UHGV virus genome: UHGV-0042115
DNA length: 37,114 nt
Direction: 5' to 3' (one strand)
From: a virus
In this document: positions 603 to 21,628 of the stretch, piece by piece
How positions within the stretch are numbered: position 1 is the first letter of the stretch
Layout: each line of letters begins with the position of its first letter
Notes under the pieces: generated by a model
Databases searched by the model: none
Told to the model about the DNA's origin: nothing
What the model saw: only the letters and a program-made list of their open reading frames with translations
Program-made: the position numbers and the translations under genes

Positions 603-616
603 AACAAAAAACCCAT
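603..616. other. attL core (AACAAAAAACCCAT)
   Basis: Identical 14-mer found at 33612-33625; located between rcdA stop and int stop. Confidence 0.6.
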
Positions 617-635
617 TTATGTAAACTGGTTAATG

Positions 636-667
636 AAAACAATAAGTTAGAGTAAAAACAATAAGTT
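636..667. repeat. Two direct 13-bp repeats AAAACAATAAGTT (636-648, 655-667); candidate integrase arm-type binding sites
   Basis: Perfect direct repeat 19 bp apart, between att core and int 3' end. Confidence 0.4.
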
Positions 668-687
668 GGGTTGGTGGTCAGTGGTGG

Positions 688-1743
688 TTATGACGGGGTA
701 ATGCCAACCGCTGCCGCCACTTTGTCGCCACTTGGCAGCGTTGCCAGAGGATTGAAACGGAGCGCCGTTTCCAGATGATCCGGTGCCAGATGTGCGTAAC
801 GCATCGTCATTTTTATATCGTGATGTCCGAGAATTTTTTGTAAGGCCAGGATGTTTCCACCCGACATCATGAAGTGCGCCGCAAACGTATGGCGCAGAAC
901 GTGTGTCAGTTGACCGCGAGGGAGCACGATAGACGTTTTTTCCATCACGGATAAAAATTGAAAATAGCAGTCTGTGAAGAAATTGAACCCATCAAGCGCC
1001 ATGATCTCTTCGTAAAGCTCTTTACTGATAGGGATGCTTCTGTTTTTCTTCCCCTTCGTTCTTACAAAGGTAATTCGGTATTTGGTCACCTGTGAGCGGG
1101 TAAGATTTACGGCTTCACGCCAGCGTGCGCCTGTGCTTAAGCATATCTTGACTACCAGTGCCAGAATTGGGTCCTGACGTTTGCAATCAGCCAGTAATTC
1201 AACAATCTGCTCATGGGTAAGCCATGCCATCTCTTTTTCTGCGATGGTGAATTTTCGCATGTTCTCCAGTGGGTTCGGATACGACCATTCGCCCAGGCGG
1301 GATAGTTCGCTAAAAACACTACTTAGATAGCTTTGCTCCAGGTTAATGGTGACCGGGCTTGCTCCTTTCTTCCATTTCTCGCTGAAGTAGATCTCTCCTG
1401 TCAGGCGTTTATCTCGATAGTGGGCAAACATTTTAGATGTGAGATCGGTTGCAAGGGGATTGCCCAGAGCGTCAACCATTAACAGCAGTTTGTCATAGAC
1501 ATGCTGGCCAGCTGTCAGAGATTTACCATGTAGTTTGAACCATAGTTCAACCACGTCTTTCAGTGTTCGACGATCCACTGATTCGCCCAGCTAGGGCTTT
1601 GCTTCGCTTTCTTCCATCGTGTGACGCTCAAAAGCCAGAGCTTCGCCTTTGGTAGCGAATTGTTTACGCACACGACGTCCGCTACGTCCGGCGGGGTAAC
1701 ATTCGCAAAGCCATTTTCCTGTGGTGAGTTTTCGTACTGCCAT
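688..1743 (-). pseudogene. int: Tyrosine integrase (P2/186 family) interrupted by in-frame TAG at codon 51
   Basis: Minus-strand ATG at 1743 gives MAVRKLTTGKWLCECYPAGRSGRRVRKQFATKGEALAFERHTMEESEAKP then TAG (1593..1591), then continues in frame as LGESVDRRTLKDV... to the C-terminal catalytic region (HxxR...Y: LRHTFAAHF...MRYAHLAP). Confidence 0.7.
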
Positions 1744-1767
1744 AAAAAAGCCCTCATATCAGAGGGC
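1744..1767 (-). terminator. Intrinsic-terminator-like hairpin (GCCCTC/GAGGGC stem, 6-nt loop) followed by U6 on the minus strand, ending 1 nt before the int ATG
   Basis: Stem 1750-1755 / 1762-1767; plus-strand A6 at 1744-1749 is U6 on the minus-strand transcript. Confidence 0.45.
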
Positions 1768-1834
1768 TAAATCTAACTGTATGTTTGAACAGTAGTCAAT
1801 GTATGATTTTATTCAATATATACATTGAAGAATA

Positions 1835-2386
1835 TTAAATTCTGTTTTGCAGACCTGATATAAAAATATTATAACTGTGTGAAAGATTTCCAGTGATTCT
1901 AAGGCACTTGCCTATTGCTCTTGATCCAGATACCTTTTGATAAGCGTATTTTGTCAGAGATACCAATTCTTGAGCTGCGTTACCAAGTCGATCAGGGTTA
2001 CGATATTTACTATTATTTTGAGATCGGGAAAGCCGCGGGATTCCTAAAGCTTCCTCGACAGACAATAAATCTCCAAGATACCAGCTTTCAAGCTCATGGC
2101 ATGCAATGCGTATTAAAACATCTGTTTTACCAGCCTTTGAGCAAATATCAGACAGTCTAGATTTAATTGTTGGACCATCTCCGCTATCTTTATCTCTAAT
2201 GACTACAAAAATAGTATCAGGAGTCATCCAGTTTTTTAATTTTTTCTCCAAGTTCTTTTCTAGATCCTGTTTACCTTCAAATACAATATATCGAGTGTCT
2301 GCATCTGCCGGAAGTAATCGAGGCAGTAATCCTTTCAGCATTTCTGCTGCAGATAATTCTTCTAGAAAGAAAGCATAAGTTGTCAT
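1835..2386 (-). CDS. Small Toprim-like protein (DUF4276-like by motif recollection), partner of the upstream ATPase
   Basis: 183 aa; motifs IVFEGKQD and VVIRDKDSGDG resemble Toprim E...DxD; start overlaps the ATPase stop (ATGA); AT-rich. Confidence 0.55.
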   Translation of the reverse strand: MTTYAFFLEELSAAEMLKGLLPRLLPADADTRYIVFEGKQDLEKNLEKKLKNWMTPDTIFVVIRDKDSGDGPTIKSRLSDICSKAGKTDVLIRIACHELESWYLGDLLSVEEALGIPRLSRSQNNSKYRNPDRLGNAAQELVSLTKYAYQKVSGSRAIGKCLRITGNLSHSYNIFISGLQNRI

Positions 2387-3582
2387 TGCGGATCAACTCC
2401 TGGGAAAAATCCTTGTTTCCATAAATATCCCATTTTATCTCCATCATTCATATAGGCTACAAGTTGAGGATCATCTGAAGCCCTGAAAGCACGAGTATAT
2501 CCATTGGTTTTAGTTAACCAGAAAACCTCATCAATATTTACTGCATTCAAGAAGTCTGGGGAATGTGTAGAAACAAATACTTGCCCTCCTCTCTGTGTAT
2601 AGGCTCTGAACTCCTCTGCTAATTCTACTAGCAGTTTTGGATATAGTTGATTTTCCGGCTCTTCGACACATAATAATGGATGAGGCTCAGGATCGTGTAA
2701 TTGTACTAAATATGCAAACATTTTTAATGTTCCATCAGATACATATCTATCGATAAAGGGATCTGCAAAGCTTCCATCTTGAAAACCTAATAATAAACGA
2801 CCATCTTGAGTGCTTATCGGTTTAACATCAGAAACTCCGGGAACTCTATGTTTCATTGAGTCAATAATTTTAGAAAATATTTCAGGATAATTATCGTGGA
2901 TGTTTCGTGCAACTAACTGTAAATTATCGCCAGTTGCAGAAAGATGGTCTTCATATCCAATAGCATCTTTTGATCCCCTAGCTGCATTGATATGAAAGTC
3001 GGAAACATGCCAATTTTCAATTAACTGCCTGAAAGCACTGGCTGCTTTAAATTTACTAAATTGACCTAACCCTTTGATTGCTAAAACATCATCAGAATCA
3101 AGCTGCTGAGTCTCTCTGTTTAGTTCTTCATCTTGTTTACTGAAATCATCTTCATTAACAATCGCAGTACCATGGCCTCTGGAGAAGTCCAAAAAGTGAT
3201 AAGGCGAGCCAAAGGAACCTCTTTTATATCTCAAGATTTCTCTTTCAACATAAACTTTTTTCCTAGAATCTTCTTTAAGTTTTAGAATATAAGTAACTAA
3301 TCGTTCATACCCACTTATTTCAATACGAAATTTTACTTCAATCTCTATTGTCCGGTCGGTAACATCCACTCCACGGCTCAGAAGTTCTTCAAAACCTCCT
3401 CTTTTCTGAACAGCACTTCTCACATTGAAAGTAAGACAATCTTTCAGAAAGCCAAACACATCAAAAAGAGTAGTTTTTCCTACGCCGTTTGCCCCGACAA
3501 TAACACAAAATTTGGGGATATTGTTCATCTCAAGATCTTGGAACGACTTGAAATTTTTTAATTTTATGGCTTCAATTAACAT
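2383..3582 (-). CDS. ABC-type ATPase (OLD/AAA_15/AAA_21-like architecture)
   Basis: 399 aa; N-terminal Walker A GANGVGKTT, C-terminal Walker B LLCVEEPE and STHSP H-loop separated by ~250 aa; ATG 8 nt after the repressor stop with SD-like AGGA in between. Confidence 0.75.
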   Translation of the reverse strand: MLIEAIKLKNFKSFQDLEMNNIPKFCVIVGANGVGKTTLFDVFGFLKDCLTFNVRSAVQKRGGFEELLSRGVDVTDRTIEIEVKFRIEISGYERLVTYILKLKEDSRKKVYVEREILRYKRGSFGSPYHFLDFSRGHGTAIVNEDDFSKQDEELNRETQQLDSDDVLAIKGLGQFSKFKAASAFRQLIENWHVSDFHINAARGSKDAIGYEDHLSATGDNLQLVARNIHDNYPEIFSKIIDSMKHRVPGVSDVKPISTQDGRLLLGFQDGSFADPFIDRYVSDGTLKMFAYLVQLHDPEPHPLLCVEEPENQLYPKLLVELAEEFRAYTQRGGQVFVSTHSPDFLNAVNIDEVFWLTKTNGYTRAFRASDDPQLVAYMNDGDKMGYLWKQGFFPGVDPQ

Positions 3583-3590
3583 AATGTTCC

Positions 3591-4484
3591 TTAATTGCTT
3601 TTATTGATGCTGGAAATGAATAAATAAACTCTAGCTACAAAATTGATATCAGAAAAACCACATTCAAAGCTATTTATGGAGGATGATACTTTTATCACCT
3701 TCTTAGGTAGTCTTGTAATATGCCGAATTGAATAGGTTTCATCGATATTGATGAGCCAGTGTCCATCCAATACATCAGTAATGTTTTGATCACAAATGTA
3801 TGTCATCAACCCGTCTTGAATGACAATTGGTGCTGAAAGATTAGCAGGTAAAAATGACGTATCGAAAATATATGAACCACACTCAACCATTTTTCCTGCA
3901 TTGAGATGAAATTTAGGCAGCTCTTTTACCAATGTTGTGAGAGAACTGTGCTTGCTGCCTTGCCCAGTGGCTAGCCATAAAAGAGAATTTCCTGTTTCCA
4001 ACGAGCATTTTATGATCCAATCAGCTGGGAAAGTGTCTCGTAAATATCTGTTTGCCATGGTGCTTTTAGATACATTCAAATGGTCGGCAAGTTCTTGTCT
4101 TGTTTTGAAGCCATACGCTTTCATTAGCCGGTCTATTGCATCACGTCCGCCTGAATCCAAATTCAGCAAGTTCCCAATAGGGTTCTCTTGATTATTGATT
4201 TGGGGAACATACTGAACCTTTGGTGCAGTTGCCTTTGACATGACCGATGCCTCTGTATTCTGAGGGAATGGTACGCCTTTTCCGAATGAGAGCCATTCGA
4301 TAGATGCACCCGTTTCAATTGCACACTGAATTACCCAGTCAGCAGGAAATACGTCACGCATCCAGCGCGTACCCATAGTGCTTGCAGATACGTTGAACTG
4401 CTCGCATAGAGCTTGCCTTGTCTTGAATCCATACGCCTCAAGCATGCGCGTTATGACTGCTTGTCCTCCGTTTTTGAAATTCAT
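3591..4484 (-). CDS. 186 CI-type immunity repressor with tandemly duplicated N-terminal DNA-binding domain
   Basis: 297 aa; two copies of the ...AYGFKTRQ.L...NVS.STM..R..RD.FPADW.I.C..ETG......WL..G.G module (aa 9-70 and 116-176) then a C-terminal domain; divergent from the apl/cII genes. Confidence 0.7.
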   Translation of the reverse strand: MNFKNGGQAVITRMLEAYGFKTRQALCEQFNVSASTMGTRWMRDVFPADWVIQCAIETGASIEWLSFGKGVPFPQNTEASVMSKATAPKVQYVPQINNQENPIGNLLNLDSGGRDAIDRLMKAYGFKTRQELADHLNVSKSTMANRYLRDTFPADWIIKCSLETGNSLLWLATGQGSKHSSLTTLVKELPKFHLNAGKMVECGSYIFDTSFLPANLSAPIVIQDGLMTYICDQNITDVLDGHWLINIDETYSIRHITRLPKKVIKVSSSINSFECGFSDINFVARVYLFISSINKSN

Positions 4485-4509
4485 TTATTACGCCTTTGAG
4501 TAATTTTGG

Positions 4510-4538
4510 TTGACACTTCTCAAATGAAGAATTAGTGT
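4510..4538 (+). promoter_or_regulatory. Candidate rightward early promoter (TTGACA, 17-nt spacer, TAGTGT)
   Basis: Consensus -35 with a weak -10, located in the repressor / apl divergent intergenic region. Confidence 0.25.
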
Positions 4539-4608
4539 GTGCGAAAGTGAACTGAACAGGATTGATCACCAGTTACCACACATCTTGTTAAACGAGGAAT
4601 CTTGCATC

Positions 4609-4830
4609 ATGACTCCACATATTTCAATCACCTTAGCTGTCCCATCTGTGTCTATTGAGAAATACAGTGAACTGACTGGGTTATCTATCGATACTATCAA
4701 TGACATGCTGGCTGATGGCCGCCTTATTCGCCATCGTCTCCGTAAAGATAAAAAGCGAGAAAAGGTAATGATCAATATCGCTGCAATGACCGTTGATGCG
4801 CTCTCTGAATGCAATTTGAGTATTAACTAG
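4609..4830 (+). CDS. Apl/Cox-like small early protein (excision/regulatory); alternative start at 4537
   Basis: First rightward gene divergent from the repressor; GAGGA SD 10 nt before ATG 4609; small basic protein. Confidence 0.45.
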   Translation: MTPHISITLAVPSVSIEKYSELTGLSIDTINDMLADGRLIRHRLRKDKKREKVMINIAAMTVDALSECNLSIN

Positions 4831-4862
4831 TTCCATTTTGGGATACATCAGGGGTGTCGACT

Positions 4863-5372
4863 ATGTTTGATTATCAAGTTTCCAAACATCCACATTTTGA
4901 TGAAGCCTGTCGTACATTCGCGCTGCGCCACAACCTGGTGCAACTGGCAGATCGTGCAGGCATGAATGTGCAGATTTTGCGTAACAAGCTGAACCCAGCT
5001 CAACCTCATTTATTAACCGCACCAGACATCTGGTTGCTTACCGATCTGACTGAAGATTCAACGCTGGTAGACGGTTTTCTGGCACAGATTCATTGTCTGC
5101 CATGTGTTCCGATTAATGAGGTGGCAAAAGAGAAATTGCCGCATTACGTCATGAGTGCAACTGCAGAGATCGGGCGTGTTGCTGCAGGTGCGGTATCTGG
5201 CGATGTAAAAACCAGTGCAGGTCGTCGTGATGCTATCAGCAGCATTAACTCTGTAACACGACTGATGGCGCTGGCTGCTGTTTCATTGCAGGCCCGTTTA
5301 CAGGCTAACCCGGCGATGGCGAGTGCAGTTGATACCGTGACTGGCCTCGGTGCTTCATTCGGTTTGCTGTGA
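4863..5372 (+). CDS. 186 CII-like regulatory protein
   Basis: 169 aa [45 protein letters not shown]... resembles 186 CII as I recall it; position after apl. Confidence 0.55.
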
Positions 5373-5379
5373 GGTGCTT

Positions 5380-5580
5380 ATGCTGACGAAAGAACCATCA
5401 TTTGCATCGCTGCTGGTAAAACAAAGTCCGGCAATGCACTACGGTCACGGCTGGATAATAGGTAAGGATGGTAAACGCTGGCATCCGTGCCGTTCACAAG
5501 ATGAATTGCTGGCAGAACTATCAACGAAAAAACGGGGGAACAAATGGCTATTGAAGGCGCTGCGGCGACTGTTCCATTAA
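5380..5580 (+). CDS. Small early-region protein (position of 186 fil)
   Basis: 66-aa ORF with GAGG SD; position only, no motif recognised. Confidence 0.3.
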   Translation: MLTKEPSFASLLVKQSPAMHYGHGWIIGKDGKRWHPCRSQDELLAELSTKKRGNKWLLKALRRLFH

Positions 5581-5885
5581 GCCCCGGTGAACGCCTGAAT
5601 GGACTTAATCACATTGCGGAGTTAAGGGCGAAAGTTTTTGGCCTGAATATTGAGTCAGAGCTTGAGCGGTTTATTAAAGATATGCGTGATCCACGGGATA
5701 TCAATAACGAACAAAATAAACGGGCACTGGCAGCCATATTCTTTATGGCAAAAATTCCGGCTGAACGTCATAGCATCAGCATTAATGAGCTGACCACTGA
5801 CGAAAAGCGGGAGTTGATTAAAGCAATGAATCATTTTCGTGCAGTGGTGAGCTTATTTCCCAGACGGCTAACCATGCCGAATTAA
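5544..5885 (+). CDS. Hypothetical early-region protein
   Basis: 113-aa ORF, ATG 5544 preceded by GGGGGAA; overlaps previous ORF end. Confidence 0.4.
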   Translation: MAIEGAAATVPLSPGERLNGLNHIAELRAKVFGLNIESELERFIKDMRDPRDINNEQNKRALAAIFFMAKIPAERHSISINELTTDEKRELIKAMNHFRAVVSLFPRRLTMPN

Positions 5886-5952
5886 CCAACTAATGAAATT
5901 CATGGCGTAAACCCGCCGGGCATCCCTTTATCTAAATTAAGGAGAGTTTATT

Positions 5953-6186
5953 ATGCGTAATATTGAAACCCTCAAGACTAAGACCGGACCGGATGACGCA
6001 GGGCTTAATATTTTACTGACAGAGGCTCGTCTGGAAGAACGCCGGGCAAGGGCTGAAGCAATGGCAGCTCGCCTTGATAGTCTGGCGTGTCATATTACAT
6101 CCCGCCAGCTAAACCACGTCGAAGCGGCAGAACTGCTGCGTGTGACTGCTGAAGCAATCCAGAACGAAGCGCAGGAGATCCACTAA
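5953..6186 (+). CDS. Hypothetical early-region protein
   Basis: 77-aa ORF with AAGGAGAG SD; stop overlaps the next start (TAATG). Confidence 0.45.
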   Translation: MRNIETLKTKTGPDDAGLNILLTEARLEERRARAEAMAARLDSLACHITSRQLNHVEAAELLRVTAEAIQNEAQEIH

Positions 6187-6413
6187 TGGCTGATGCAATG
6201 GATCTCGTACAGCAGCGCGTTGAAGAAGAACGCCAGCGCCATATCCGTGCTGCCCGTGCCAAAACGCCGGGCGTGTCACGCGTGCTTTGCATTGAATGTG
6301 AAGCGCCAATTCCGCCAGCAAGACGCCGCGTCATTCCGGGAGTGCAGCTTTGCATTACCTGCCAGGAAATCGCAGAGCTGAAAGGCAAACATTACAACGG
6401 AGGTGCTGTATGA
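6186..6413 (+). CDS. TraR/DksA-family C4 zinc-finger protein
   Basis: CIECEAPIPPARRRVIPGVQLCITCQ: CxxC-N17-CxxC motif typical of phage TraR-like proteins. Confidence 0.7.
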   Translation: MADAMDLVQQRVEEERQRHIRAARAKTPGVSRVLCIECEAPIPPARRRVIPGVQLCITCQEIAELKGKHYNGGAV

Positions 6414-7267
6414 GCACCATCCTGAAATGGGCGGGTAATAAAACCGCCATTATGTCCGAACTGAAAAAACATCTTCCTGCTGGCCCGCGACTGGTTGAAC
6501 CTTTCGCGGGTTCTTGTGCTGTGATGATGGCGACGGATTACCCCAGCTATCTGGTTGCGGATATTAATCCTGATTTAATCAACCTCTATAAAAAGGTTTC
6601 TGCTGATTGTGAGGCGTTTATATCTCGCGCCAGAGTTTTATTTGAGAACGCAAACAGGGAGGTGGCTTATTACAACATAAAGCAGGAGTTTAATTACTCA
6701 ACTGAAATTACTGATTTCATGAAAGCGGTATATTTCCTGTATCTCAATCGTCACGGTTACCGTGGGTTATGTCGCTATAACAAGAGCGGGCATTTCAACA
6801 TTCCCTACGGTAATTATAAAAATCCGTATTTCCCTGAAAAAGAAATTCGCGCATTTGCAGAGAAAGCCCAGCGAGCAACGTTTATCTGCGCCAGCTTTGA
6901 TGAAACGCTGGCGATGCTGCAGGTGGGGGATGTGGTGTATTGCGATCCGCCTTATGACGGTACGTTTTCCGGTTATCACACTGACGGCTTCACTGAAGAT
7001 GACCAGTATCACCTGGCATCCGTTCTTGAACATCGGTCATCAGAAGGACATCCCGTCATTGTTTCTAACAGTGACACATCCCTGATCCGTTCGCTGTATC
7101 GCAATTTTACTCACCACTACATCAAGGCAAAACGCAGCATCGGTGTGGCAGCTGGTGATAGTAAATCTGCAACAGAAATCATTGCTGTTTCCGGGGCGCG
7201 CTGCTGGGTGGGATTTGATCCTTCGCGTGGCGTAGATAGTTCTGCTGTGTACGAGGTGCGTGTATGA
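6410..7267 (+). CDS. DNA adenine methyltransferase (Dam-like, D12 class)
   Basis: Motifs [53 protein letters not shown]; GGAGG SD before ATG 6410. Confidence 0.88.
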
Positions 7268-9676
7268 GTCATGACGATATGAGCAACTCTAGCGGCTTTA
7301 ACGAGGCCGCTGCATCATTTTCATGGAACGGCCCGAAAAAGGCCATTAACCCTTATCTGGACCCGGCGGAATTTGCGCCGGAGTCTGCACTTTCAAACCT
7401 GATCACTCTGTATGCTGCCGATAACGAGCAGGAACAACTGCGCCGCGAGGCACTGAGTGAGCAGGTCTGGGAGCGTTATTTCTTTAATGAATCCCGTGAT
7501 CCTGTCCAGCGCGAAATGGAGCAGGATAAGCTCATTAGCCGCGCAAAGCTTGCGCATGAGCAGCAGCTTTTTAACCCGGACATGGTCATTCTGGCAGATG
7601 TCAGCGCCCAGCCTACCCACATCAGCAAGCCGCTGATGCAACGTATCGAATACTTCAGCAGCCTGGGCAGGCCAAAGGCTTATTCCCGCTATTTGCGTGA
7701 GACGATTAAGCCATGTCTGGAGCGACTGGATTGTGTACGCGACAGTCAGCTATCCGCTTCTTTCCGTTTTATGGCAAGCCATCAAGGGCTTGAGGGCCTG
7801 CTGATCCTGCCTGAAATGAGTCAGGATCAGGTAAAACGCCTGTCCACCCTGGTAGCTGCGCATATGAGCATGTGCCTTGATGCCGCTTGTGGCGATTTAT
7901 ATGCCACCGATGACGTTAAGCCAGAAGAAATCCGCAAGACATGGGAAAAGGTGGCAGCGGAAACCCTGCGACTGGATGTTATCCCGCCTGCGTTTGAGCA
8001 ACTCCGCCGGAAAAGAAACCGCCGCAAACCCGTGCCCTATGAACTCATACCGGGTTCGCTGGCACGTATGCTTTGCGCCGACTGGTGGTATCGAAAATTG
8101 TGGAAGATGCGTTGCGAATGGCGGGAAGAGCAGTTGCGTGCTGTCTGCCTGGTCAGCAAAAAAGCATCTCCCTATGTCAGCTATGAAGCCGTGACGCATA
8201 AACGTGAGCAGCGCCGTAAGTCGCTGGAGTTTTTCCGTTCTCATGAACTGGTGAACGAAGACGGCGACACGCTGGATATGGAAGATGTGGTAAACGCCAG
8301 CAGCAGCAACCCGGCACATCGCCGCAATGAGATGATGGCCTGTGTTAAAGGTCTGGAGCTTATCGCAGAAATGCGTGGTGACTGCGCCGTTTTCTACACT
8401 ATCACCTGTCCGTCACGTTTCCATTCCACGCTCAACAACGGCAGACCCAACCCGACCTGGACAAATGCGACGGTAAGACAAAGCAGCGATTATCTGGTCG
8501 GCATGTTTGCTGCATTTCGTAAGGCTATGCACAAAGCCGGGTTGCGCTGGTATGGCGTGCGGGTGGCTGAGCCGCACCATGACGGTACTGTGCACTGGCA
8601 TCTCATGTGTTTCATGCGCAAAAAAGACCGCCGCGCCATTACTGCATTGTTGCGTAAGTTTGCCATCCGTGAAGACCGCGAGGAACTGGGTAATAACACT
8701 GGTCCACGCTTTAAATCTGAGCTGATAAACCCACGCAAAGGAACACCGACAAGCTACATCGCGAAATACATCAGTAAGAACATTGACGGGCGTGGTCTGG
8801 CTGGCGAGATCAGCAAGGAAACGGGTAAATCCCTGCGTGATAATGCTGAATACGTTAATGCTTGGGCGTCTCTGCATCGTGTTCAGCAATTCCGCTTCTT
8901 TGGCATTCCGGGGCGTCAGGCTTACCGTGAACTGCGATTGCTGGCTGGTCAGGCGGCAAGGCAACAGGGGACAAAAAGCAGGTGCGCCGGTACTGGATAA
9001 CCCGCGCCTTGATGCCATCCTGGCTGCTGCTGATGCTGGTTGTTTTGCCACCTACATCATGAAGCAGGGCGGCGTACTGGTTCCCCGCAAATATCACCTT
9101 ATCAGAACAGCTTATGAAATTAACGAAGAGCCGACTGCTTATGGCGATCACGGTATTCGTATTTATGGCATCTGGTCACCCATTGTACAGGGCAAGATTT
9201 GCACTCATGCAGTGAAGTGGAAAATGGTTCGTAAGGCCGTTGACGTTCAGGAGGCGGCAGCCGACCAGGGCGCTTGCGCCCCTTGGACTCGTGGCAATAA
9301 CTGTCCCCTTGCTGAAAATTTGAACCAACAAGGGAAAGACAAATCAGCTGATGGGGACTCCAGAACGGATATTACCCGTATGAATGACAAGGAGTTGCAC
9401 GATTACCTGCACAGTATGAGCAAAAAAGAGCGCCGGGAACTGGCTGCAAGGTTACGCCAGGTGAAACCGAAACGGCGTAAAGACTACAAACAGCGAATTA
9501 CGGACCATCAGCGACAGCAGCTCGTCTATGAACTGAAGTCCAGGGGATTTGATGGCAGCGAGAAAGAAGTCGATTTGCTCCTTCGCGGCGGCAGTATTCC
9601 GTCAGGAGCAGGCCTGCGTATCTTCTATCGGAACCAGCGTCTGAAGGAAGATGATAAGTGGCGGAACCTGTATTAA
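7264..9676 (+). pseudogene. A: Replication initiator gpA-like (rolling-circle endonuclease), reading frame changes near 8963-8990
   Basis: First 578 codons end at TAA 8998-9000; the remaining ~230 codons continue in the +1 frame (…[17 protein letters not shown]…) to 9676; junction lies in a G4/A5 homopolymer region. Confidence 0.7.
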
Positions 9677-9768
9677 TTACGCGGGTTAACAATTCGTGCT
9701 CTTAATAATACCAGGCATATCAGGCCGATGAACGTAAAAAAACGTTTTACATCAGTAAGATTATTATA

Positions 9769-9788
9769 TACTGTAAATATAAACAGTG
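9769..9788. promoter_or_regulatory. LexA (SOS) box TACTGTAAATATAAACAGTG
   Basis: Perfect CTGT-N8-ACAG dyad; a degenerate overlapping second site GTG-N10-CAG at 9786-9801. Confidence 0.6.
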
Positions 9789-9828
9789 GTTATGTATACA
9801 GTATTGTTTTGGTGTCATAGGAGGAAAG

Positions 9829-9885
9829 ATGCAGGACTATTTTTTGGAGTCTTTGAAGCTCCAGCGCATTGATTTTTTTTCTTAA
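9829..9885 (+). CDS. 18-codon ORF (MQDYFLESLKLQRIDFFS) with strong SD, directly downstream of the LexA box; possibly the 5' part of a split tum-like gene
   Basis: AGGAGG at 9819-9824; ends inside a T8 run; the next frame continues as a 50-codon ORF to 10018. Confidence 0.25.
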   Translation: MQDYFLESLKLQRIDFFS

Positions 9886-10028
9886 GCTTGTAGCGGCTAG
9901 TGAGTGTAGTGATGAAGAGAAGGGGCTGGCTCTGCAGTGGGTTTCTGAATTGACTGATGAACTCATGGCAAAAATCAGAAGCCACGAATACAACCGCTCA
10001 ATGGATGTCATCAGCTGAGGTGACTTTT

Positions 10029-10262
10029 ATGCGCATTGAAATAATGATCGATAAAGAGCAGAAGATTAGCCAGTCTACCCTGGACGCACTTGAATCCGAG
10101 CTTTACCGCAATCTGCGCCCCCTGTATCCCAAAACGGTAATTCGCATTCGCAAAGGTAGCTCTAACGGTGTGGAACTAACCGGACTGCAACTGGATGAAG
10201 AAAGAAAACAAGTGATGAAAATTATGCAGAAGGTGTGGGAGGACGACAGCTGGCTGCATTAA
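10029..10262 (+). CDS. DinI-family protein
   Basis: 77 aa MRIEIMIDKEQ...LDALESELYRNLRPLYPKTVIRIRKGSSNGVELTG...MQKVWEDDSW resembles E. coli DinI; GAGG SD; track ORF starts earlier at 9957. Confidence 0.75.
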   Translation: MRIEIMIDKEQKISQSTLDALESELYRNLRPLYPKTVIRIRKGSSNGVELTGLQLDEERKQVMKIMQKVWEDDSWLH

Positions 10263-10270
10263 GAAATGTT

Positions 10271-10300
10271 GCCCCCAGGAGGATTCATTCTGATGGGGGC
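10271..10300. terminator. GC-rich hairpin (GCCCCCA / TGGGGGC, 16-nt loop) between convergent dinI-like and the acidic-protein gene
   Basis: 7-bp perfect stem; loop is long and the T-tract weak, so terminator function is uncertain. Confidence 0.3.
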
Positions 10301-10454
10301 TAGTTTGGGCAATGAGTGAAATAAGGCGTAAGGTGGGCGGTTATTTTGATAAGTGATCGTCCGCTTTGTGTCAGAAGCAGAAGTGGGAGTGTCTGAGACT
10401 CTCTAAAAGTTGATGATTCACTTACAAAACCATTTTCCTGATGGATGCTTACAC

Positions 10455-10790
10455 TTACGAATGATCATTCTGTTTAGTCTTCATGAGAAAATCCCGAATC
10501 TTTGCCAAGTTTGAATTTTCGGGGATTGAATCCATGTACGGATCACGCTCAAACACTAATTGCTCAGATTCAACGAAAGCCTGCCACTCTAATGGGTCTA
10601 GCTCAAATCCCATTGCTGTCATATCACTTTCATCTTCCCCCTCGATCCAGTGGACTAAATAAAACAATTCATCATCAGGAGAATCATCCTCACCATCAAC
10701 AATATCAACATCGGTTACAGTGATACGTAGGGTGGGATCGATTTTTGAGACATAAATTCCTAACTGTGGTATAGGGGGAATATTGTTCAT
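10455..10790 (-). CDS. Highly acidic 111-aa hypothetical protein
   Basis: Strong SD (AGGAG, 5-nt spacer) before the minus-strand ATG at 10790; ~25% D/E, few basic residues; no recognisable motif. Confidence 0.6.
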   Translation of the reverse strand: MNNIPPIPQLGIYVSKIDPTLRITVTDVDIVDGEDDSPDDELFYLVHWIEGEDESDMTAMGFELDPLEWQAFVESEQLVFERDPYMDSIPENSNLAKIRDFLMKTKQNDHS

Positions 10791-11038
10791 GGAAACTCCT
10801 TTTATTGGTGTTTGCTATTTGAATAAAAATACGCCAAACAGAGTGTTAACTGTGAATATGGAAAGAATCGTTGTAAGTACCCCGCTTAGGTGTCCCATTC
10901 TATTTTAGAGGTTCTCGTGCATATGGATTATGTTATCTGAAAGTTAACTTCCGCTTCCCGTTCACAGCGAACATTCATCTTTGTAAACCCGTATGATCCG
11001 TTTTTCAAGTGGCCATTCAGATACGGATTTTCACTTCC

Positions 11039-11068
11039 TTGACAGTGCATGACTATGCTGCATGAAAT
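11039..11068 (+). promoter_or_regulatory. Promoter-like element (TTGACA, 18-nt spacer, TGAAAT)
   Basis: Consensus -35 with moderate -10, in the long non-coding region upstream of the PRTase gene. Confidence 0.2.
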
Positions 11069-11102
11069 CGCATGATCGATTGAGGATCGTCTTTGCTCAG
11101 AT

Positions 11103-11124
11103 CCGCCAGAACTGGCGGGCTTTT
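11103..11124 (+). terminator. Intrinsic-terminator-like hairpin (CCGCCA GAAC TGGCGG) followed by GCTTTTG
   Basis: 6-bp GC-rich stem, 4-nt loop, 4-U tract on the plus strand. Confidence 0.35.
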
Positions 11125-11318
11125 GCTCATGTCATGCATGTGCATGAAAACCACTGCATAAAGCGGGCAGGCGTGGCGGGGATACGAGCGCGCGCTAACT
11201 CTTGGCTTTGTTTCATAATCAAAAATGTGATCATTGAGATTATTCTTAAATTTGTGTTTGTCTATGAAATATCATTTCGCTTAACATTGTTTGAGTTAGG
11301 ACTACATGAGAATAAAGA

Positions 11319-11894
11319 ATGCTTTTACCCGTAAGTATTACATCGTGTGGCTTGTATCACCCCTACTGGCATTTGGGAGAGCGCAACCCTCATAGCGATG
11401 AACTATCAAGGCAGATGATGGATTTTAAGGATGAAAATAATCGTAATCATCAAAGGGCCATTAACCGTTTTTCTCGATTAGCTATAGATAAGGTTGGGCG
11501 GTTAGTAATCAGAGGTGGCGGTGGGCGTTTTGTTGAGTCTCCTTTTTCGATAGCAGTTGTCCCGTCTCACACTGAAGGCAGAATTTCACCGGCTTTGATT
11601 GAGGTCGCCGAGCGAATCGTAAATGTTCACCGTCGGGGCATTGTTGATTGCTGTTTGGAAAGAACACGCACTGTTCCTAGCGCACATCGTGAAGGTGGAG
11701 ATCGCTCAATTACTGGTCACATGTCTAGTATCAGAGTTAGGGGTGGTAACCTCATGGGGCGAAATGTGTTACTACTAGATGATGTTAAAACAACAGGCGG
11801 TAGTTTGTCTGCGTGTTTTTATTTACTGGAGTCTGCAGGAGCTGGAGTTATAATGCCATTAGCTCTGCTAGAAACTGCAAACTATGAGGAGTAG
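11319..11894 (+). CDS. Phosphoribosyltransferase (PRTase)-domain protein, ComF-like; candidate toxin/effector
   Basis: 191 aa; C-terminal PRPP-binding motif NVLLLDDVKTTGGSL; ATG directly after an in-frame stop. Confidence 0.7.
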   Translation: MLLPVSITSCGLYHPYWHLGERNPHSDELSRQMMDFKDENNRNHQRAINRFSRLAIDKVGRLVIRGGGGRFVESPFSIAVVPSHTEGRISPALIEVAERIVNVHRRGIVDCCLERTRTVPSAHREGGDRSITGHMSSIRVRGGNLMGRNVLLLDDVKTTGGSLSACFYLLESAGAGVIMPLALLETANYEE

Positions 11895-11898
11895 CAAA

Positions 11899-12858
11899 GT
11901 GCACTCAGAAGAATTAAAAAATACACTTGGATTAGCTATTCAAATCGGGAAGCTAGCATCTGATCAAAGTGTATTAAAATTCTTTGAGCTTATCGATTTT
12001 GATGTTATTCGTGATATACGCGACTTAACTGAGATGGTTAATAGCCACGGGTTTCTAAAAGATAAAATATCTGAGACTGATTTTCTAATAGCGAACGCTG
12101 AATTGGAGAACCACCATGTTAATGGTGTGGAGCTAATACCATATGGGTCTGAATTCTATCCTCTTAGTTTAGCTTTTACTCCTAATCCACCATCAATTCT
12201 CTACATAAAAGGGGATAAAAGTATACTCAAAGAATTGCCGGGTGTCGCAATTGTAGGATCCCGTGATACCTCCCCTGCAGGGGAAGAAATAACGAGGCGG
12301 ATCACTAATCAGATAGTGTCTGCTGGGTATATTGTTGTAAGTGGGTTAGCAATAGGCACTGATGCGAATGCTCACAAGGCAACGTTACAGGCAAAAGGAA
12401 AAACCATTGCTGTCTTGGCGCATGGTCTTGAGGAGGCTAAGCCGAAGCAAAACAGTCGACTTGCTCAAGAGATTCTGGATAAAGGTGGTGCATGGATTTC
12501 TGAGTATCCTATGGGTCGGCCGGCCCAGAAACAATCATTTGTACAAAGAAATCGGATACAAGTTGGATTATCTGCAGGTTCAATTTTAATCGAGGCTGCG
12601 TTAAATAGCGGAACGATAACTCAAGCTGAGTTTGCAAATAAGGCGAAAAGACCAGTGTTTGCGGTTGTACCTCACCTACCTAATAATCCGCTTAATCTTA
12701 ATTGTGAGGGAACAGTTGATTTAGTTAAGAGCAACATGGCTAGAGCGCTAAAAACAAAACGGGATTATGATGATGTGATTATGATCATAAATGAGTCCCG
12801 GGAGTATTTGTTAGAGCTAAAATGGCCAGGGAAACAGAGTACATTAGACTTGATTTAA
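11899..12858 (+). CDS. DprA/Smf-like (Rossmann-fold DNA-processing) protein; alternative ATG start at 11884
   Basis: VAIVGSRDTSPAGEEI...VVSGLAIGTDANAH...TIAVLAHGL...YP...FVQRNRIQVGLS...LIEAALNSGT...PVFAVV matches the DprA core; AGGAG SD 7 nt before GTG 11899, just after the PRTase stop. Confidence 0.8.
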   Translation: MHSEELKNTLGLAIQIGKLASDQSVLKFFELIDFDVIRDIRDLTEMVNSHGFLKDKISETDFLIANAELENHHVNGVELIPYGSEFYPLSLAFTPNPPSILYIKGDKSILKELPGVAIVGSRDTSPAGEEITRRITNQIVSAGYIVVSGLAIGTDANAHKATLQAKGKTIAVLAHGLEEAKPKQNSRLAQEILDKGGAWISEYPMGRPAQKQSFVQRNRIQVGLSAGSILIEAALNSGTITQAEFANKAKRPVFAVVPHLPNNPLNLNCEGTVDLVKSNMARALKTKRDYDDVIMIINESREYLLELKWPGKQSTLDLI

Positions 12859-12861
12859 AGC

Positions 12862-12876
12862 GCCTCTTTTAGAGGC
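12862..12876. terminator. Short hairpin (GCCTCT ttt AGAGGC) between convergent DprA-like and portal genes
   Basis: 6-bp stem, 3-nt loop; only 24 bp separate the two stop codons. Confidence 0.3.
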
Positions 12877-12882
12877 ACTTTG

Positions 12883-13908
12883 CTAAATTTGATATCTCTC
12901 GAATTTTATAATTTCTTCACCGCTCCAATGATTAAATTCTTTCATTCTTTTTTGTAATGGTAATAATTCATTTTTCACAAATACCTTACTAGCTTTTTCT
13001 ACATCCCCAAATCCCCCAACATTATTAGGCATTATCCCCATCATTTGTGGCGGCACACGATGCGCTGCCATCATGTCATCCCGACTCACGTTCTTGATGT
13101 TAAGAAATTCATCCTTCGCCGCGACTTCTGACAACGGGATGATCTGAAGCCCGTCCTTTTTGCCGTTAGGCGAGTACATAAACAGGTTGCGGAAGTTGCC
13201 AGGGCCTTTGGCGCTTTTCATCGCATTGCGGAGGTTGTTCACATCCTCCTGGTTCTGCGCGGCATCGGTCATGTACATGATGAAGCCTGCATGACTGCCG
13301 TTAATGTAATACTTCCGGCGGAACAGCGTGGCGGACTCGTTGAGCAGGGCTGACGGAATGGCAGAAAGATAACCTGGCAGGCCGTAGATCTCCTGGTTGA
13401 TGTCCGGTTCCATCAGATGAAAAATGCTGCCTTTCGTGAACTGATACGGCTGGGTTGTCATACCGTATTGCACAAACCAGTAGGTATCCAGGTCTAACCC
13501 GCGTCGGGTGTATTTTGCCAGAGCAGGCTCAAGGGCGATAACTTCACCGAAGCGGTTCGTGCGTTTCTCCAGGTAGGCGTTACCAAATACCAGATAGTCC
13601 TGCACAAAACGTGAAAAAGCCTGCTGGCTGAGCAGCGGGTGAGGGATGTAGGTACTGGTCAGAATATTGCATTTCACCGCAATCGGTGAGCTGTGATGCA
13701 CGGCGGCGCGAAAGGTGCGCGCCAGCCCGTCAAAACTCACTGGCGGCTCATACCATCGATCTGTCTGTACGCATTCCACATAGTCCAGCAGTTCACGGCG
13801 GTCCAGAACAGGAACGGGATCGCCGAAGCTGAATGCTTCGGCTGAACTCTGGCTTTTATGCTGGATCTGATTCATCGCCGCTACGCGGTTTTTTTTACTC
13901 TTTCCCAT
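12883..13908 (-). CDS. Q: Portal protein (P2 gpQ-like)
   Basis: ~340 aa, P2 Q-like sequence and position; minus-strand ATG at 13908 overlaps the terminase stop (ATGA); the track ORF starts one codon upstream at TTG. Confidence 0.88.
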   Translation of the reverse strand: MGKSKKNRVAAMNQIQHKSQSSAEAFSFGDPVPVLDRRELLDYVECVQTDRWYEPPVSFDGLARTFRAAVHHSSPIAVKCNILTSTYIPHPLLSQQAFSRFVQDYLVFGNAYLEKRTNRFGEVIALEPALAKYTRRGLDLDTYWFVQYGMTTQPYQFTKGSIFHLMEPDINQEIYGLPGYLSAIPSALLNESATLFRRKYYINGSHAGFIMYMTDAAQNQEDVNNLRNAMKSAKGPGNFRNLFMYSPNGKKDGLQIIPLSEVAAKDEFLNIKNVSRDDMMAAHRVPPQMMGIMPNNVGGFGDVEKASKVFVKNELLPLQKRMKEFNHWSGEEIIKFERYQI

Positions 13909-15674
13909 CAAAAAATCTCCACAATATTGCTGGTATTGGCGGATTCGCCCTGCAGCGGTTCGTTAAACAATGCGTGCATCGTTGCCCAGGCCAGATCGGC
14001 GTGGCTGGCTTCTTCGCTGCGGCTGGCTTCATAGGTCGGGCGGTTGCCGCTGGCGGTGGTGGCGCGACGGATTGCCATAAAGGACTGCGCTATGTCGGTG
14101 TGCCCGGCGTCAAACTCCAGGCGGCGGTGGCTAATAATGTCGTAGGCCTTGAGTACCAGGGCGTTTTTAACGTTGGGGTTGTAGACAAACTCCCGGACGG
14201 CAGGAAAAAACGCTTTCACGTTCTCGTAAACCCCGTGACCGACGCCGGTTGAGTCGATACCGATGTATGTTACGTTGTACTGTTCAGTCAGTTTTTTGAT
14301 GGCGTCAGCCTGGGCGCGGAAGTCCATCCCGCGCCACTGGTGACGCTCAAGAATGCGGAACTTACCGCCCGGCACGGCTGGCGGTGCCACCACCACGCAC
14401 CCGGCGCTGTCGCCGTTTTGCGTACCTTTTGCCGGGTCATAACCGATCCACACTTCGCGCCAGCCAAACGGGCGCAGGGCCAGTGCATGAAAGTCGCTCC
14501 AGACTTCCCAACTGTCCACCATGCACGCCTGCAGCTCGCTGAGCGGGAACACGGACGCGAGATCGTCCACAAACTCGCACATCAGCAGGTTCTGGTATTC
14601 GTCCGGGCTGTACTCCATGCGCAACTGATCGAGGTCGAAAAGGTTACATCCGCCGCGCACTGCATCTTCCACGGTGACTATCTGGCGGTATTGCCCGTCT
14701 GCGCACAGCAGGCCGGGGGCCAGATTGCTGTGGGACAGGTCGATGTCCACCTTATCGGCTTTGTTACGCCCACGGTTGAACAGCGCACCAGACCAGAACG
14801 GATAAGCACTGTGTGTCAGGCTGGATGGCGTGGAAAAATAGGTTTGTCGCCATTTTTTGTGAATAGCCATACCGGAAGCCACTTTGCGCAGCTCCTGGAA
14901 TTTCGGTATCCAGAAATATTCATCCAGATACAGGTTGCCGTGGTAACTCTGGGCCGTGCGGGCATTGGTGCCGAGGAAGTAAAGCGTGGCCCCGTTGGGA
15001 AGCACCATCGGATCGCCTTTCAGCTCCACCTCCACTTCTTTGGCGAAGTCGATGATGTACTGTTTAAAGACGTGGGCCTGTGCCTTACTGGCGGAAAGGA
15101 AAATCTGGTTACGTCCGGTAAGCAGGGCGTCAATCAGGGCTTCACGGGCAAAGTAAAAGGTCGCGCCGATCTGGCGTGACTTCAGCAGGTTGCGGATGCG
15201 GTTGGTTTTTCCGGCTTCCCACCAGTGGCGCTGGTAGTTGAACATGGAGGAATGGAAGATTTCTTCCAGCTTCTCAATCTGCTCATCGGTGAAAACATTC
15301 TTTTCCGGCTGACGGCGCGGGCCTTTGTTGCGGTTGGCGACGTTAGGGTTTAAGTCGGCTTCGTTGCCGCCATTGTTAAACTTGCCGATCCGCGCGTGGC
15401 GTTCCGACTGGCGCGCCAGCAGGTCAATCTCTTTGAAATCTTTCCCTTCTTTGTGCTCCTTCATAATGAGCTGGCAGTAGCGTGCGGCGGTGGTGAGCTG
15501 CATCTGATCCAGCGGCCCATAGTCACCCCACTTGTCGCGTTTCTTCCAGCTGTGAACGGTTGCAACTTTCTCGCCCAGCATTTCAGCAATGCGGGCTACA
15601 CGGTATCCCTGAAAGTACAGCAGCATGGCCTGCCGACGGGGATCGAGATCTGCGGGTGTCAGTGTGGTGTTCAT
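13908..15674 (-). CDS. P: Terminase large (ATPase) subunit (P2 gpP-like)
   Basis: 588 aa, size and order as P2 P; divergent from the O-N-M-L operon. Confidence 0.88.
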   Translation of the reverse strand: MNTTLTPADLDPRRQAMLLYFQGYRVARIAEMLGEKVATVHSWKKRDKWGDYGPLDQMQLTTAARYCQLIMKEHKEGKDFKEIDLLARQSERHARIGKFNNGGNEADLNPNVANRNKGPRRQPEKNVFTDEQIEKLEEIFHSSMFNYQRHWWEAGKTNRIRNLLKSRQIGATFYFAREALIDALLTGRNQIFLSASKAQAHVFKQYIIDFAKEVEVELKGDPMVLPNGATLYFLGTNARTAQSYHGNLYLDEYFWIPKFQELRKVASGMAIHKKWRQTYFSTPSSLTHSAYPFWSGALFNRGRNKADKVDIDLSHSNLAPGLLCADGQYRQIVTVEDAVRGGCNLFDLDQLRMEYSPDEYQNLLMCEFVDDLASVFPLSELQACMVDSWEVWSDFHALALRPFGWREVWIGYDPAKGTQNGDSAGCVVVAPPAVPGGKFRILERHQWRGMDFRAQADAIKKLTEQYNVTYIGIDSTGVGHGVYENVKAFFPAVREFVYNPNVKNALVLKAYDIISHRRLEFDAGHTDIAQSFMAIRRATTASGNRPTYEASRSEEASHADLAWATMHALFNEPLQGESANTSNIVEIF

Positions 15675-15720
15675 GGCACAAACCTACAGCCTTGAATGAA
15701 GGCTTTCCCCGCCTGCGGTT

Positions 15721-15738
15721 TGTGTGGTAGTCGGTACA
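15721..15738. promoter_or_regulatory. TGT-N12-ACA dyad (Ogr/Delta-type late activator site) in the divergent P/O promoter region
   Basis: TGTGTGGTAGTCGGTACA between P start and O start. Confidence 0.5.
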
Positions 15739-15816
15739 AATACCGCGCATTGTTTCACTGCCCCCATCACCGCAACCATAAGGCTCCAGTAAGTTTTTTC
15801 TAACGGAGCACGGCTC

Positions 15817-16650
15817 ATGACAGTGAAAGTAAAGCGTTTTCGCATCGGGGTGGAAGGTGCCACCACCGACGGACGCGAAATCCAGCGTGAATGGCTGGAA
15901 CAGATGGCAGCCAGCTACAACCCGACGGTGTACACCGCGCTGATTAACCTTGAGCACATCAAGTCTTATCTGCCGGACAGCACCTTTAACCGCTACGGCA
16001 AGGTGACGGCGCTGTTTGCTGAAGAAATCACGGAAGGTCCGCTGGCAGGCAAGATGGCGCTGTATGCCGACGTTGAGCCAACGGAGTCCCTGGTGGAGCT
16101 GGTGAAAAAAGGCCAGAAATTATTCACCTCTATGGAAGTCAGCCCGAAGTTCGCTGATACGGGCAAAGCCTACCTGGTCGGCCTGGCTGCCACTGATGAC
16201 CCTGCCAGTCTGGGCACTGAAATGCTGACATTCAGCGCCAGTGCAGCCCATAACCCGCTGGCAAACCGCAAGCAGAATCCTGCCAATCTCTTTACCGCTG
16301 CAGAGGAAACGGTGATCGAACTGGAAGAAATCCAGGATGACAAACCGTCCCTGTTTGCCCGTGTCACGGCGCTGTTCACCAAAAAAGAGCAGTCCGATGA
16401 CGCCCGGTTCTCTGATGTGCATAAGGCCGTGGAGCTGGTCGCCACTGAGCAGCAGAACCTGAGCGCACGCACCGAAAAATCCCTGTCTGAGCAGGAAGAA
16501 CGCCTGTCTGAACTGGAGACTGCTCTGCAGGAGCAGCAAACCGCCTTTAACGAACTGGTGAATAAGCTGAGTCATGAAGACAGCCGCCAGGACTACCGCC
16601 AGCGTGCAACAGGCGGTAACGCCCCCGCTGACACTCTGACCAATTGCTGA
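15817..16650 (+). CDS. O: Capsid scaffolding protein (P2 gpO-like)
   Basis: 277 aa, position and size as P2 O; SD ACGGAG. Confidence 0.85.
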   Translation: MTVKVKRFRIGVEGATTDGREIQREWLEQMAASYNPTVYTALINLEHIKSYLPDSTFNRYGKVTALFAEEITEGPLAGKMALYADVEPTESLVELVKKGQKLFTSMEVSPKFADTGKAYLVGLAATDDPASLGTEMLTFSASAAHNPLANRKQNPANLFTAAEETVIELEEIQDDKPSLFARVTALFTKKEQSDDARFSDVHKAVELVATEQQNLSARTEKSLSEQEERLSELETALQEQQTAFNELVNKLSHEDSRQDYRQRATGGNAPADTLTNC

Positions 16651-16666
16651 TGGAGCACAAAACCTG

Positions 16667-17725
16667 ATGAAGAAGAATACCCGCTTTGCTTTTAAGGCTT
16701 ACCTGCAGCAGCTGGCGCGTCTGAACGGTGTGGCAGTTGAAGAACTGTCCAGCAAGTTCACCGTGGAGCCGTCTGTACAGCAGACGCTGGAAGACCAGAT
16801 CCAGCAGTCCGCCGCTTTCCTGACGCTGATTAACGTCACGCCAGTGACTGAGCAGTCCGGTCAGCTGCTGGGGTTGGGGGTTGGTAGCACCATTGCCGGA
16901 ACCACTGACACCACCGCGAAAGAGCGTGAACCTGTCGATCCTACGCTGATGGTCGATGTGGAATACAAATGCGAGCAGACCAACTTTGACACGGTACTGA
17001 CCTACGCGAAGCTGGACCTGTGGGCGAAGTTTCAGGATTTCCAGGTGCGTATCCGTGACGCCATCGTGAAACGTCAGGCACTGGACCGCATCATGATCGG
17101 CTTTAACGGCGTGAAGCGTGCGAAAACCTCCAACCGTAGCGAAAACCCGCTGCTGCAGGATGTGAACAAAGGCTGGCTGCAGAAAATCCGTGAAGATGCA
17201 CCGGATCACGTCATGGGCAGCACCACCACGGGCGGTGAAACCACACCGGGCGCGGTGAAAGTCGGCAAAGGTGGCGAATATGCCAACCTGGACGCCGTAG
17301 TGATGGATGCCGTTAATGAGCTTATCGACGTGGTCTACCAGGACGATGACGATCTGGTGGTGATTTGCGGTCGTGAACTGCTGTCTGACAAGTATTTCCC
17401 GCTGGTCAACAAAGAGCAGGAAAACAGTGAAAAACTGGCTGCCGATATGATCATCAGCCAGAAACGCATGGGGGGCCTGCAGGCCGTGCGTGCGCCGTTC
17501 TTCCCGCCGAATGCGCTGCTGATCACCCGTCTGGATAACCTGTCCATCTACTGGCAGGAAGACACCCGCCGCCGTTCAGTTATCGACAACCCGAAACGTG
17601 ACCGGATTGAAAACTTTGAATCCGTTAACGAAGCCTACGTGGTTGAGGACTACCGCTGCGCCGCACTGGTGGAAAACATCCAGATTGGCGATTTCAGCGC
17701 CGCCGCAGCAGAAGCCGGAGCGTAA
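16667..17725 (+). CDS. N: Major capsid protein (P2 gpN-like)
   Basis: 352 aa; position and size as P2 N. Confidence 0.88.
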   Translation: MKKNTRFAFKAYLQQLARLNGVAVEELSSKFTVEPSVQQTLEDQIQQSAAFLTLINVTPVTEQSGQLLGLGVGSTIAGTTDTTAKEREPVDPTLMVDVEYKCEQTNFDTVLTYAKLDLWAKFQDFQVRIRDAIVKRQALDRIMIGFNGVKRAKTSNRSENPLLQDVNKGWLQKIREDAPDHVMGSTTTGGETTPGAVKVGKGGEYANLDAVVMDAVNELIDVVYQDDDDLVVICGRELLSDKYFPLVNKEQENSEKLAADMIISQKRMGGLQAVRAPFFPPNALLITRLDNLSIYWQEDTRRRSVIDNPKRDRIENFESVNEAYVVEDYRCAALVENIQIGDFSAAAAEAGA

Positions 17726-17728
17726 CCC

Positions 17729-18379
17729 ATGAGCCTGAGTCCCGCACGGCAGCATCGCCTGCGCGTTCAGGCTGAACAGGCCGCCCGTGAGGGCGGCAGC
17801 GTTCGCCACGCGTCGGGCTATGACCTGATGCTGCTGCAACTGGCGGAAGACCGCCGCCGTCTCAAGGGCGTTCAGTCCACGGTCAAAAAAGCGGAAATCA
17901 AAGTGGAGCTGCTGCCGAAGTACGCCGCCTGGGCGGAGGGGGTCCTGGCTGCCGGAGGCGCGCAACAGGATGACGTGCTGATGTACGTGATGCTGTGGCG
18001 TATTGATGCCGGAGATTATGCCGGGGCGCTGGAGATCGGGCGTCATGCCCTGCGTCATGGCTGGGTGATGCCGCTGGGTAACCGCAACGTGCAGACCGTG
18101 CTGGCAGAGGAAATGGCAGACGCCGCGCAGAGCGCAATGCTTGCCGCCACCGGCTTTGATGCCGATCCGCTGCTGCAGACGCTGGAGATGACAGACGGTC
18201 TGGATATGCCGGATCAGTCACGGGCGCGACTGCATAAAGCCATTGGTGCGGTCCTGAGCGAAAGCAACCCGGCCTCCGCCCTGAACCACCTTACCCATGC
18301 GCTGCAACTCGATCCCCGCTGTGGCGTGAAAAAAGACAAACAGCAGCTGGAGCGCAGACTGCGCAATGACAGCCGCTGA
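17729..18379 (+). CDS. M: Terminase small/endonuclease subunit (P2 gpM-like)
   Basis: 216 aa; follows N with 3-nt gap. Confidence 0.8.
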   Translation: MSLSPARQHRLRVQAEQAAREGGSVRHASGYDLMLLQLAEDRRRLKGVQSTVKKAEIKVELLPKYAAWAEGVLAAGGAQQDDVLMYVMLWRIDAGDYAGALEIGRHALRHGWVMPLGNRNVQTVLAEEMADAAQSAMLAATGFDADPLLQTLEMTDGLDMPDQSRARLHKAIGAVLSESNPASALNHLTHALQLDPRCGVKKDKQQLERRLRNDSR

Positions 18380-18474
18380 CAGAACGTGCCCCCGCGCACG
18401 GGCGGCACGGGGTGGCGAAAGGCACTGCCACATCAAAACCCCGTCCACCGCCCTCTATTTCAGGAGAAAGCAGC

Positions 18475-18939: not shown

Positions 18940-19142
18940 TGAAAGTGCGAGCGCATCAGTATGACACGGTGGATGCACTTTGCTGGCGTCATTACGGGCG
19001 CACGCAGGGTGTCACGGAGCAGGTACTGAAGGCAAATCCGGGGCTTGCCGAATACGGCCCCTTTTTACCTCACGGGCTGCAGGTGGAGCTGCCGGACATT
19101 CCGACAACCACCACCGTGCAGACCGTCCAGCTATGGGACTGA
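18939..19142 (+). CDS. X: Tail protein X
   Basis: 67 aa MKVRAHQYDTVDALCWRHYGRTQGV...ANPGLAEYGPFLPHG resembles P2 X. Confidence 0.75.
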   Translation: MKVRAHQYDTVDALCWRHYGRTQGVTEQVLKANPGLAEYGPFLPHGLQVELPDIPTTTTVQTVQLWD

Positions 19143-19145
19143 ATT

Positions 19146-19854: not shown

Positions 19855-19855
19855 A

Positions 19856-21624: not shown

Positions 21625-21628
21625 TCTT

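Follow-up and report, generated by a model that had tools for sequence, protein, structure and literature searches.

Does an in-frame stop codon in the integrase gene (int) of a P2/186-like prophage reflect a real mutation and, if so, can the prophage still leave the chromosome? The stretch of DNA analysed here (the 37,114-nucleotide virus genome UHGV-0042115, referred to below as the window) contains a 33-kb P2/186-like prophage that spans positions 603..33625 and lies between rcdA (ybjK) and ybjL; its int occupies positions 688..1743 on the minus strand. This gene is a clonal nonsense pseudogene, a product of ordinary prophage decay, and its interruption has very probably "grounded" the prophage, whose decay is still at an early stage. 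The feature itself is already known, given that RefSeq labels the gene of Escherichia coli MS 85-1 as a phage integrase pseudogene with an internal stop.

Translation of the int frame from the ATG at 1743 to position 688 gives 351 sense-or-stop codons followed by a terminal TAA at 690-688, and the only internal stop is a TAG at 1593..1591, codon 51, so that the uninterrupted frame of a functional integrase gene is not present. The list of open reading frames accordingly splits int into 1743..1591 (50 amino acids) and 1578..688 (296 amino acids, with a GTG start). When codon 51 is restored to Trp in silico, the protein matches the Pfam families Int_N (PF24624, residues 57-165, E 3e-32) and Phage_integrase (PF00589, E 7e-22), as well as the catalytic domain structure of HP1 integrase (1aih, E 6e-58) and the crystal fragment of P2 Int (5c6k, E 2e-47). 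The alignment with 1aih retains the conserved segments TGARW, HVLRHTFA and LGH...MTMRYAH, and with them the tyrosine recombinase motifs (Arg...His-x-x-Arg...His/Tyr). Together with RefSeq, these matches identify a P2/186/HP1-type tyrosine integrase, in which a core-binding Int_N domain is preceded by a short N-terminal arm-binding domain. Residues 1-50 (1594..1743, minus strand), assigned to the arm-binding domain on the basis of PMC3448106, align with the N-terminal domains of P2, Fels-2 and K139 Int, and show no difference from the corresponding stretch of the intact 350-residue integrase WP_065523354.1 of near-identical prophages; the Kp4LV2017 sequence, which was in the wrong frame, was disregarded in the protein alignment. 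The claim of the first-pass annotation that the frame is integrase-like on both sides of the amber codon is thus borne out by translation, by Pfam and by the identity to WP_065523354.1, and its placement of the frame from 1743 to 688 is also correct, but the gene of the relatives ends one codon earlier, at 691. The Shine-Dalgarno pairing of the native ATG (-6.1 kcal/mol) is the best among the int starts, and codons 1-50 are the sole part of int that can be translated from it. Full-length Int is lost, as had been proposed, because translation from the native start ends after residue 50.

The direction of the change is evident from the relatives. The four closest E. coli prophages (SW071618, GPEC60-12-649, Z226-7 and 14EC029), which are 99.6-99.8% identical to the window over positions 600-1850, all encode an intact 350-residue integrase (WP_065523354.1 or WP_101968836.1). 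Over this interval, the window differs from them at 627, 692 and 1592 (14EC029 has two further differences), and within codon 51 the only difference is at 1592, where the plus strand has T instead of C and the codon reads TAG instead of TGG. TGG is found in all close relatives, and the Trp that it encodes lies within a conserved motif (KPWLG / KEWLS) of the integrases of P2, K139, Fels-2 and ev129, in agreement with the earlier suggestion that TGG may have been the original codon. Judged from these alignments, the amber arose by a spontaneous G-to-A transition on the coding strand (C to T at 1592 on the plus strand), which turned the Trp codon into TAG. The MS 85-1 lineage has the derived base at the other two positions too, given that all relatives, free-phage records among them, have the alternative one: at 692, the ancestral stop (691..693, minus strand) is changed from TAA to TCA, which appends one Ser to the integrase before the next TAA (the relatives end at 691 with TAA TAA), and at 627, 11 bases from the attL core, a G has been replaced by a T. 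These changes do not amount to an excess of mutations in the int-attL module of the kind expected under relaxed selection, a possibility that was considered and rejected: three substitutions in 1.14 kb compared with eight in the next 9.5 kb (relative to SW071618) are not significantly different in a rough Poisson estimate (P about 0.1).

The distribution of the amber allele is narrow. An exact 61-mer around the TAG occurs in one of 5,426 complete E. coli genomes, namely MS 85-1, and integrases of the P2/186 type seen here are present in about 1,100 genomes at 80-99% nucleotide identity. The exact 50-residue and 296-residue pieces were found in five Logan contigs each, and truncated gene calls of 288 amino acids have been deposited for MS 84-1, MS 85-1 and MS 124-1 (EFJ84592.1, EFK68865.1 and EFU37804.1). 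The mutation very probably occurred in the ancestor of this small clonal group of human-gut isolates. A literature search on MS 85-1 returned nothing relevant.

The sites on which the integrase should act are in place. The attL core, AACAAAAAACCCAT, lies at 603..616 on the plus strand, 17 bases past the rcdA stop codon, and an identical 14-mer at 33612..33625 (plus strand) forms the attR core. Two tandem repeats, TGCCGCCACTT and TGTCGCCACTT (712..733, plus strand), lie within the 3' end of int and match the consensus of the arm repeats of phage 186, tgccGCCActt (PMC3448106); they are presumed to be the Int arm-binding sites of attL. A further repeat of the same type, TGCCGCCATTT, lies near attR, in the interval that separates ogr from the core (33538..33548, plus strand). 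The prophage therefore has the short att core with flanking arm-type direct repeats of the P2-186-HP1 group, and the substrates of site-specific recombination look intact, so that int is the one part of the recombination module in which a lesion was found. A second copy of this integrase type that could complement the defect is absent from MS 85-1, where it occurs at one place in the record.

P2/186-type integrases divide the work between three domains, of which the N-terminal one binds to the arm sites and the middle one to the core, with catalysis left to the C-terminal one (PMC3448106); lambda Int is organised in the same way (PMC1807965). The amber codon falls on the boundary between the arm-binding and core-binding domains, because the alignment with 5c6k, an arm-less fragment of P2 Int, starts at query residue 49. 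Translation from the native ATG would thus yield the arm-binding domain alone, and no single polypeptide would join arm binding to catalysis. Because P2/186 Int must bridge arm and core sites for recombination between attL and attR, the excision complex would not form and the prophage should no longer be able to excise efficiently; as a phage, the element would be defective in integration as well. Prophages are known to become grounded when their recombinase is inactivated (PMC6379469), and the present locus combines a nonsense codon in the recombinase gene with att cores and arm repeats that are still present. The amber codon in int probably locks the prophage in place, and basal read-through of the UAG or reinitiation could leave a little Int activity.

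The first of the explanations under which some activity would persist is reinitiation. The first-pass annotation had proposed a restart at the in-frame GTG at 1578 that yields a protein without the arm-binding region; such a restart is possible and its product would indeed lack that region, but the case for it is poor because the Shine-Dalgarno pairing is weak (-2.8 kcal/mol, compared with -6.1 for the native ATG). This GTG (codon 56) is located four codons past the stop, 12 bases downstream of the TAG, and opens a frame of 296 residues (688..1578, minus strand) that retains both Pfam domains, that is, only the core-binding Int_N and the catalytic domain. The product would begin five residues past the start of the 5c6k alignment, which suggests that it could fold. 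In E. coli, reinitiation shortly after early nonsense codons is established from studies on restarts in lacI. An alternative start is a second in-frame GTG (codon 64; 1552..1554, minus strand), at which the deposited 288-residue calls begin. Against an arm-less Int with some residual activity or a regulatory role stand the even weaker pairing at the second GTG (-0.9 kcal/mol), the partial base pairing of the GTG at 1578 in the predicted RNA fold, and the confinement of the allele to one clone, which gives no sign of a selected function. In addition, arm-site binding requires the N-terminal domain (PMC3448106; for lambda, PMC1807965), and an arm-less Int should therefore not recombine attL with attR. 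Overall, this explanation is unlikely; a trace of arm-less Int may be made, and nothing suggests that it is functional or selected.

It is very unlikely that the amber codon is instead read through, with the help of a suppressor tRNA of the host or by decoding with a near-cognate tRNA, at a level that provides functional full-length Int and allows excision at a reduced rate. Rare excision may need very little Int, and the nucleotide that follows the stop is a C, UAG-C being a comparatively weak termination context. Nevertheless, natural E. coli isolates are rarely suppressor strains, and the window contains no tRNA gene, which excludes a phage-borne suppressor tRNA. Programmed recoding has likewise been excluded: the stop is not conserved among homologues, being absent in all relatives, which have TGG, and TAG occurs in one of the 5,426 complete genomes. 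The RNA past the stop forms small local hairpins only (z = -2.2), without a conserved or unusually stable structure. A more elaborate variant, in which the 50-residue arm domain and an arm-less Int reinitiated at the GTG at 1578 are both made and cooperate in trans, or in which low read-through yields a prophage with very rare excision, a natural "throttled" integrase retained by selection in a gut lineage, is highly improbable.

The quality of the underlying sequence also has to be considered. Over positions 600-1850, the window is 100% identical to the finished chromosome of MS 85-1, a human ileal isolate (NZ_CP146650.1), and over its whole length it differs from that chromosome only by three 1-base indels (8971, 8973 and 9873) and by a tail-fibre repeat region that is 337 bases shorter. 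In the window, frameshifts disrupt replication endonuclease gene A (open reading frames 7264-9000 and 8783-9676), which is intact in finished MS 85-1 (2,415 bases); the three indels are artefacts of the draft rather than biology, because all of them are homopolymer-length differences. The frameshifted gene A product occurs in exactly one public contig, ADWT01000014.1 of the draft assembly GCA_000179135.1, which matches the window exactly, and the window is thus an older draft, almost certainly of the same strain as finished MS 85-1. In the tail-fibre repeat region (about 24650-25060), the window has an open reading frame of 583 amino acids and the finished genome an annotated protein of 695 amino acids; the shorter version is probably a tandem repeat that has collapsed in the draft. 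Even though the window is thus a low-quality draft, the chance that the TAG arose in sequencing or assembly and that int is intact in the cell, as the first-pass annotation had considered, is negligible, because the draft errors are all of the homopolymer-length type (G4/G5, A5/A6 and T8/T7) and the TAG results from a substitution where the sequence is not repetitive, which is reproduced in at least four separate assemblies (the finished NZ_CP146650.1, the draft GCA_000164215.1 of another isolate [locus L008], and the Logan assemblies of the sequencing runs SRR088909 and SRR088925) and is therefore not an assembly artefact.

A grounded prophage thus remains the preferred reading. The gene order starts with int, a two-gene cassette, a cI-type repressor and a small divergent open reading frame at the usual place of apl; cII, fil, a Dam methylase gene and replication gene A come next, and a DinI/Tum-like gene, P2-type late genes and ogr complete it. 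Identical WP accessions show that the repressor and the products of the putative Apl-like and DinI/Tum-like genes are the same proteins as in a relative with an intact int. Upstream of the DinI/Tum-like gene, a LexA-box pattern, CTGTAAATATAAACAG, is present at 9771-9786, as expected for an SOS-inducible 186-type prophage; a LexA-controlled Tum drives the induction of a P2-like E. coli prophage (PMC12055606). Because the regulators are unchanged and this box is present, SOS induction probably still starts lytic development, which would then proceed from an unexcised template. By analogy to int-defective lambda lysogens, the expected outcome would be harm to the cell and little phage. As the prophage is probably locked, SOS induction may therefore kill cells without releasing transducing or infective phage.

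The int gene might itself be under SOS control. Directly upstream of it lies a promoter-like site (1770..1799, minus strand) with TTGACT and TAGATT separated by an 18-base spacer, inside which a further LexA-box pattern (CTGT-N8-ACAG) is found at 1777-1792. The arrangement of -35 region, box and -10 region is retained in 97% relatives (with a CTGG variant) and in the divergent phage ev129 (with a perfect box), the flanks being different, which suggests SOS control of the int promoter in the 186-like lineage of the window; no paper describing a LexA box in the int promoter of this lineage was found. Between this site and the gene, a GC-rich hairpin (1749..1768, minus strand) precedes a T-run that reaches up to the int ATG, and the int Shine-Dalgarno motif GAGGG is part of the 3' arm of this hairpin. 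The hairpin could be a terminator of the upstream cassette, a mask of the int ribosome-binding site, or both.

Besides int, RefSeq lists one prophage gene as a pseudogene, a tail-fibre assembly gene that is truncated, and the int mutation is therefore probably recent. Both neutral decay and selected loss are compatible with it. The tail-fibre assembly frame (25844-26281, plus strand; 145 amino acids, with a TTG start) lacks the first approximately 21 positions of the Caudo_TAP profile, and RefSeq treats it as an incomplete pseudogene; SW071618 has a full assembly gene together with an invertase segment at this place, and the truncation may be a second defect of the prophage. Recurrent decay has been encountered elsewhere in the family: a related integrase in another widespread lineage (L019 and L021, 1501-2760) carries a W68-to-TAG change, a second stop and a C-terminal frameshift, and the public collection has the W68-to-TAG integrase in no fewer than 273 blocks. 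This multiply hit gene indicates that integrases of the P2/186 type decay repeatedly. Its neighbours on the two sides encode a SNIPE/T5orf172 protein and a SocA_Panacea protein.

The two-gene cassette between cI and int (1835-3582, minus strand) encodes a 399-residue AAA_21/AAA_15 ATPase and a 183-residue DUF4276 protein, and corresponds to HEC-01, a candidate defence system in PADLOC (E 2e-209 and 7e-75). Its site is a variable cargo slot, because the relatives have a DUF4041 gene there instead. A gene annotated as DprA-like (DNA-processing protein; 11884-12858, plus strand) lies in the variable stretch that separates the early genes from the portal gene, and at its place SW071618 has a different hypothetical gene.

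It should be noted that the amber codon has little significance beyond the MS 85-1 strain. For work on MS 85-1, MS 84-1 and MS 124-1, it is relevant that the prophage between rcdA and ybjL is probably locked in the chromosome and that a candidate HEC-01 defence cassette is part of it. The locus also offers a clean case from nature of how prophage decay begins, for which a near-isogenic intact allele is available for comparison.

The nearest known systems are the Int proteins of the P2/186/HP1 type of the Peduoviridae, with which the repaired protein shares the organisation of a 350-residue heterobivalent tyrosine recombinase, and in particular the intact allele WP_065523354.1 and the integrases of Escherichia phage vB_EcoM-813R9 and Klebsiella phage KP12. 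The identity to the Int of 813R9 is 99.7%; for HP1 Int it is about 48%, and for P2 Int 35-39%. The 186-type arm repeats and the order attL-int...cI-(putative apl)-cII...ogr-attR are shared as well. Alleles of the WP_065523354.1 type differ from the present one in having TGG rather than TAG at codon 51, a stop that lies one codon earlier, and the ancestral base beside the attL core.

With grounded prophages such as Qin and its intQ' (PMC6379469), the MS 85-1 element has in common a point lesion in the recombinase gene, an expected block of excision, and the retention of immunity and cargo genes. Classic cryptic prophages, in contrast, are heavily deleted, whereas here a single nonsense codon is found and the att sites and the repressor, putative Apl-like, replication and most morphogenesis genes look intact. 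The potential product of a restart resembles the arm-less P2 Int fragment 5c6k, past the alignment start of which it begins. As in the int amber mutants of lambda and P2 that were made in the laboratory, a nonsense mutation removes full-length Int; unlike those, the MS 85-1 allele arose naturally and has become fixed in a clonal lineage of gut isolates.
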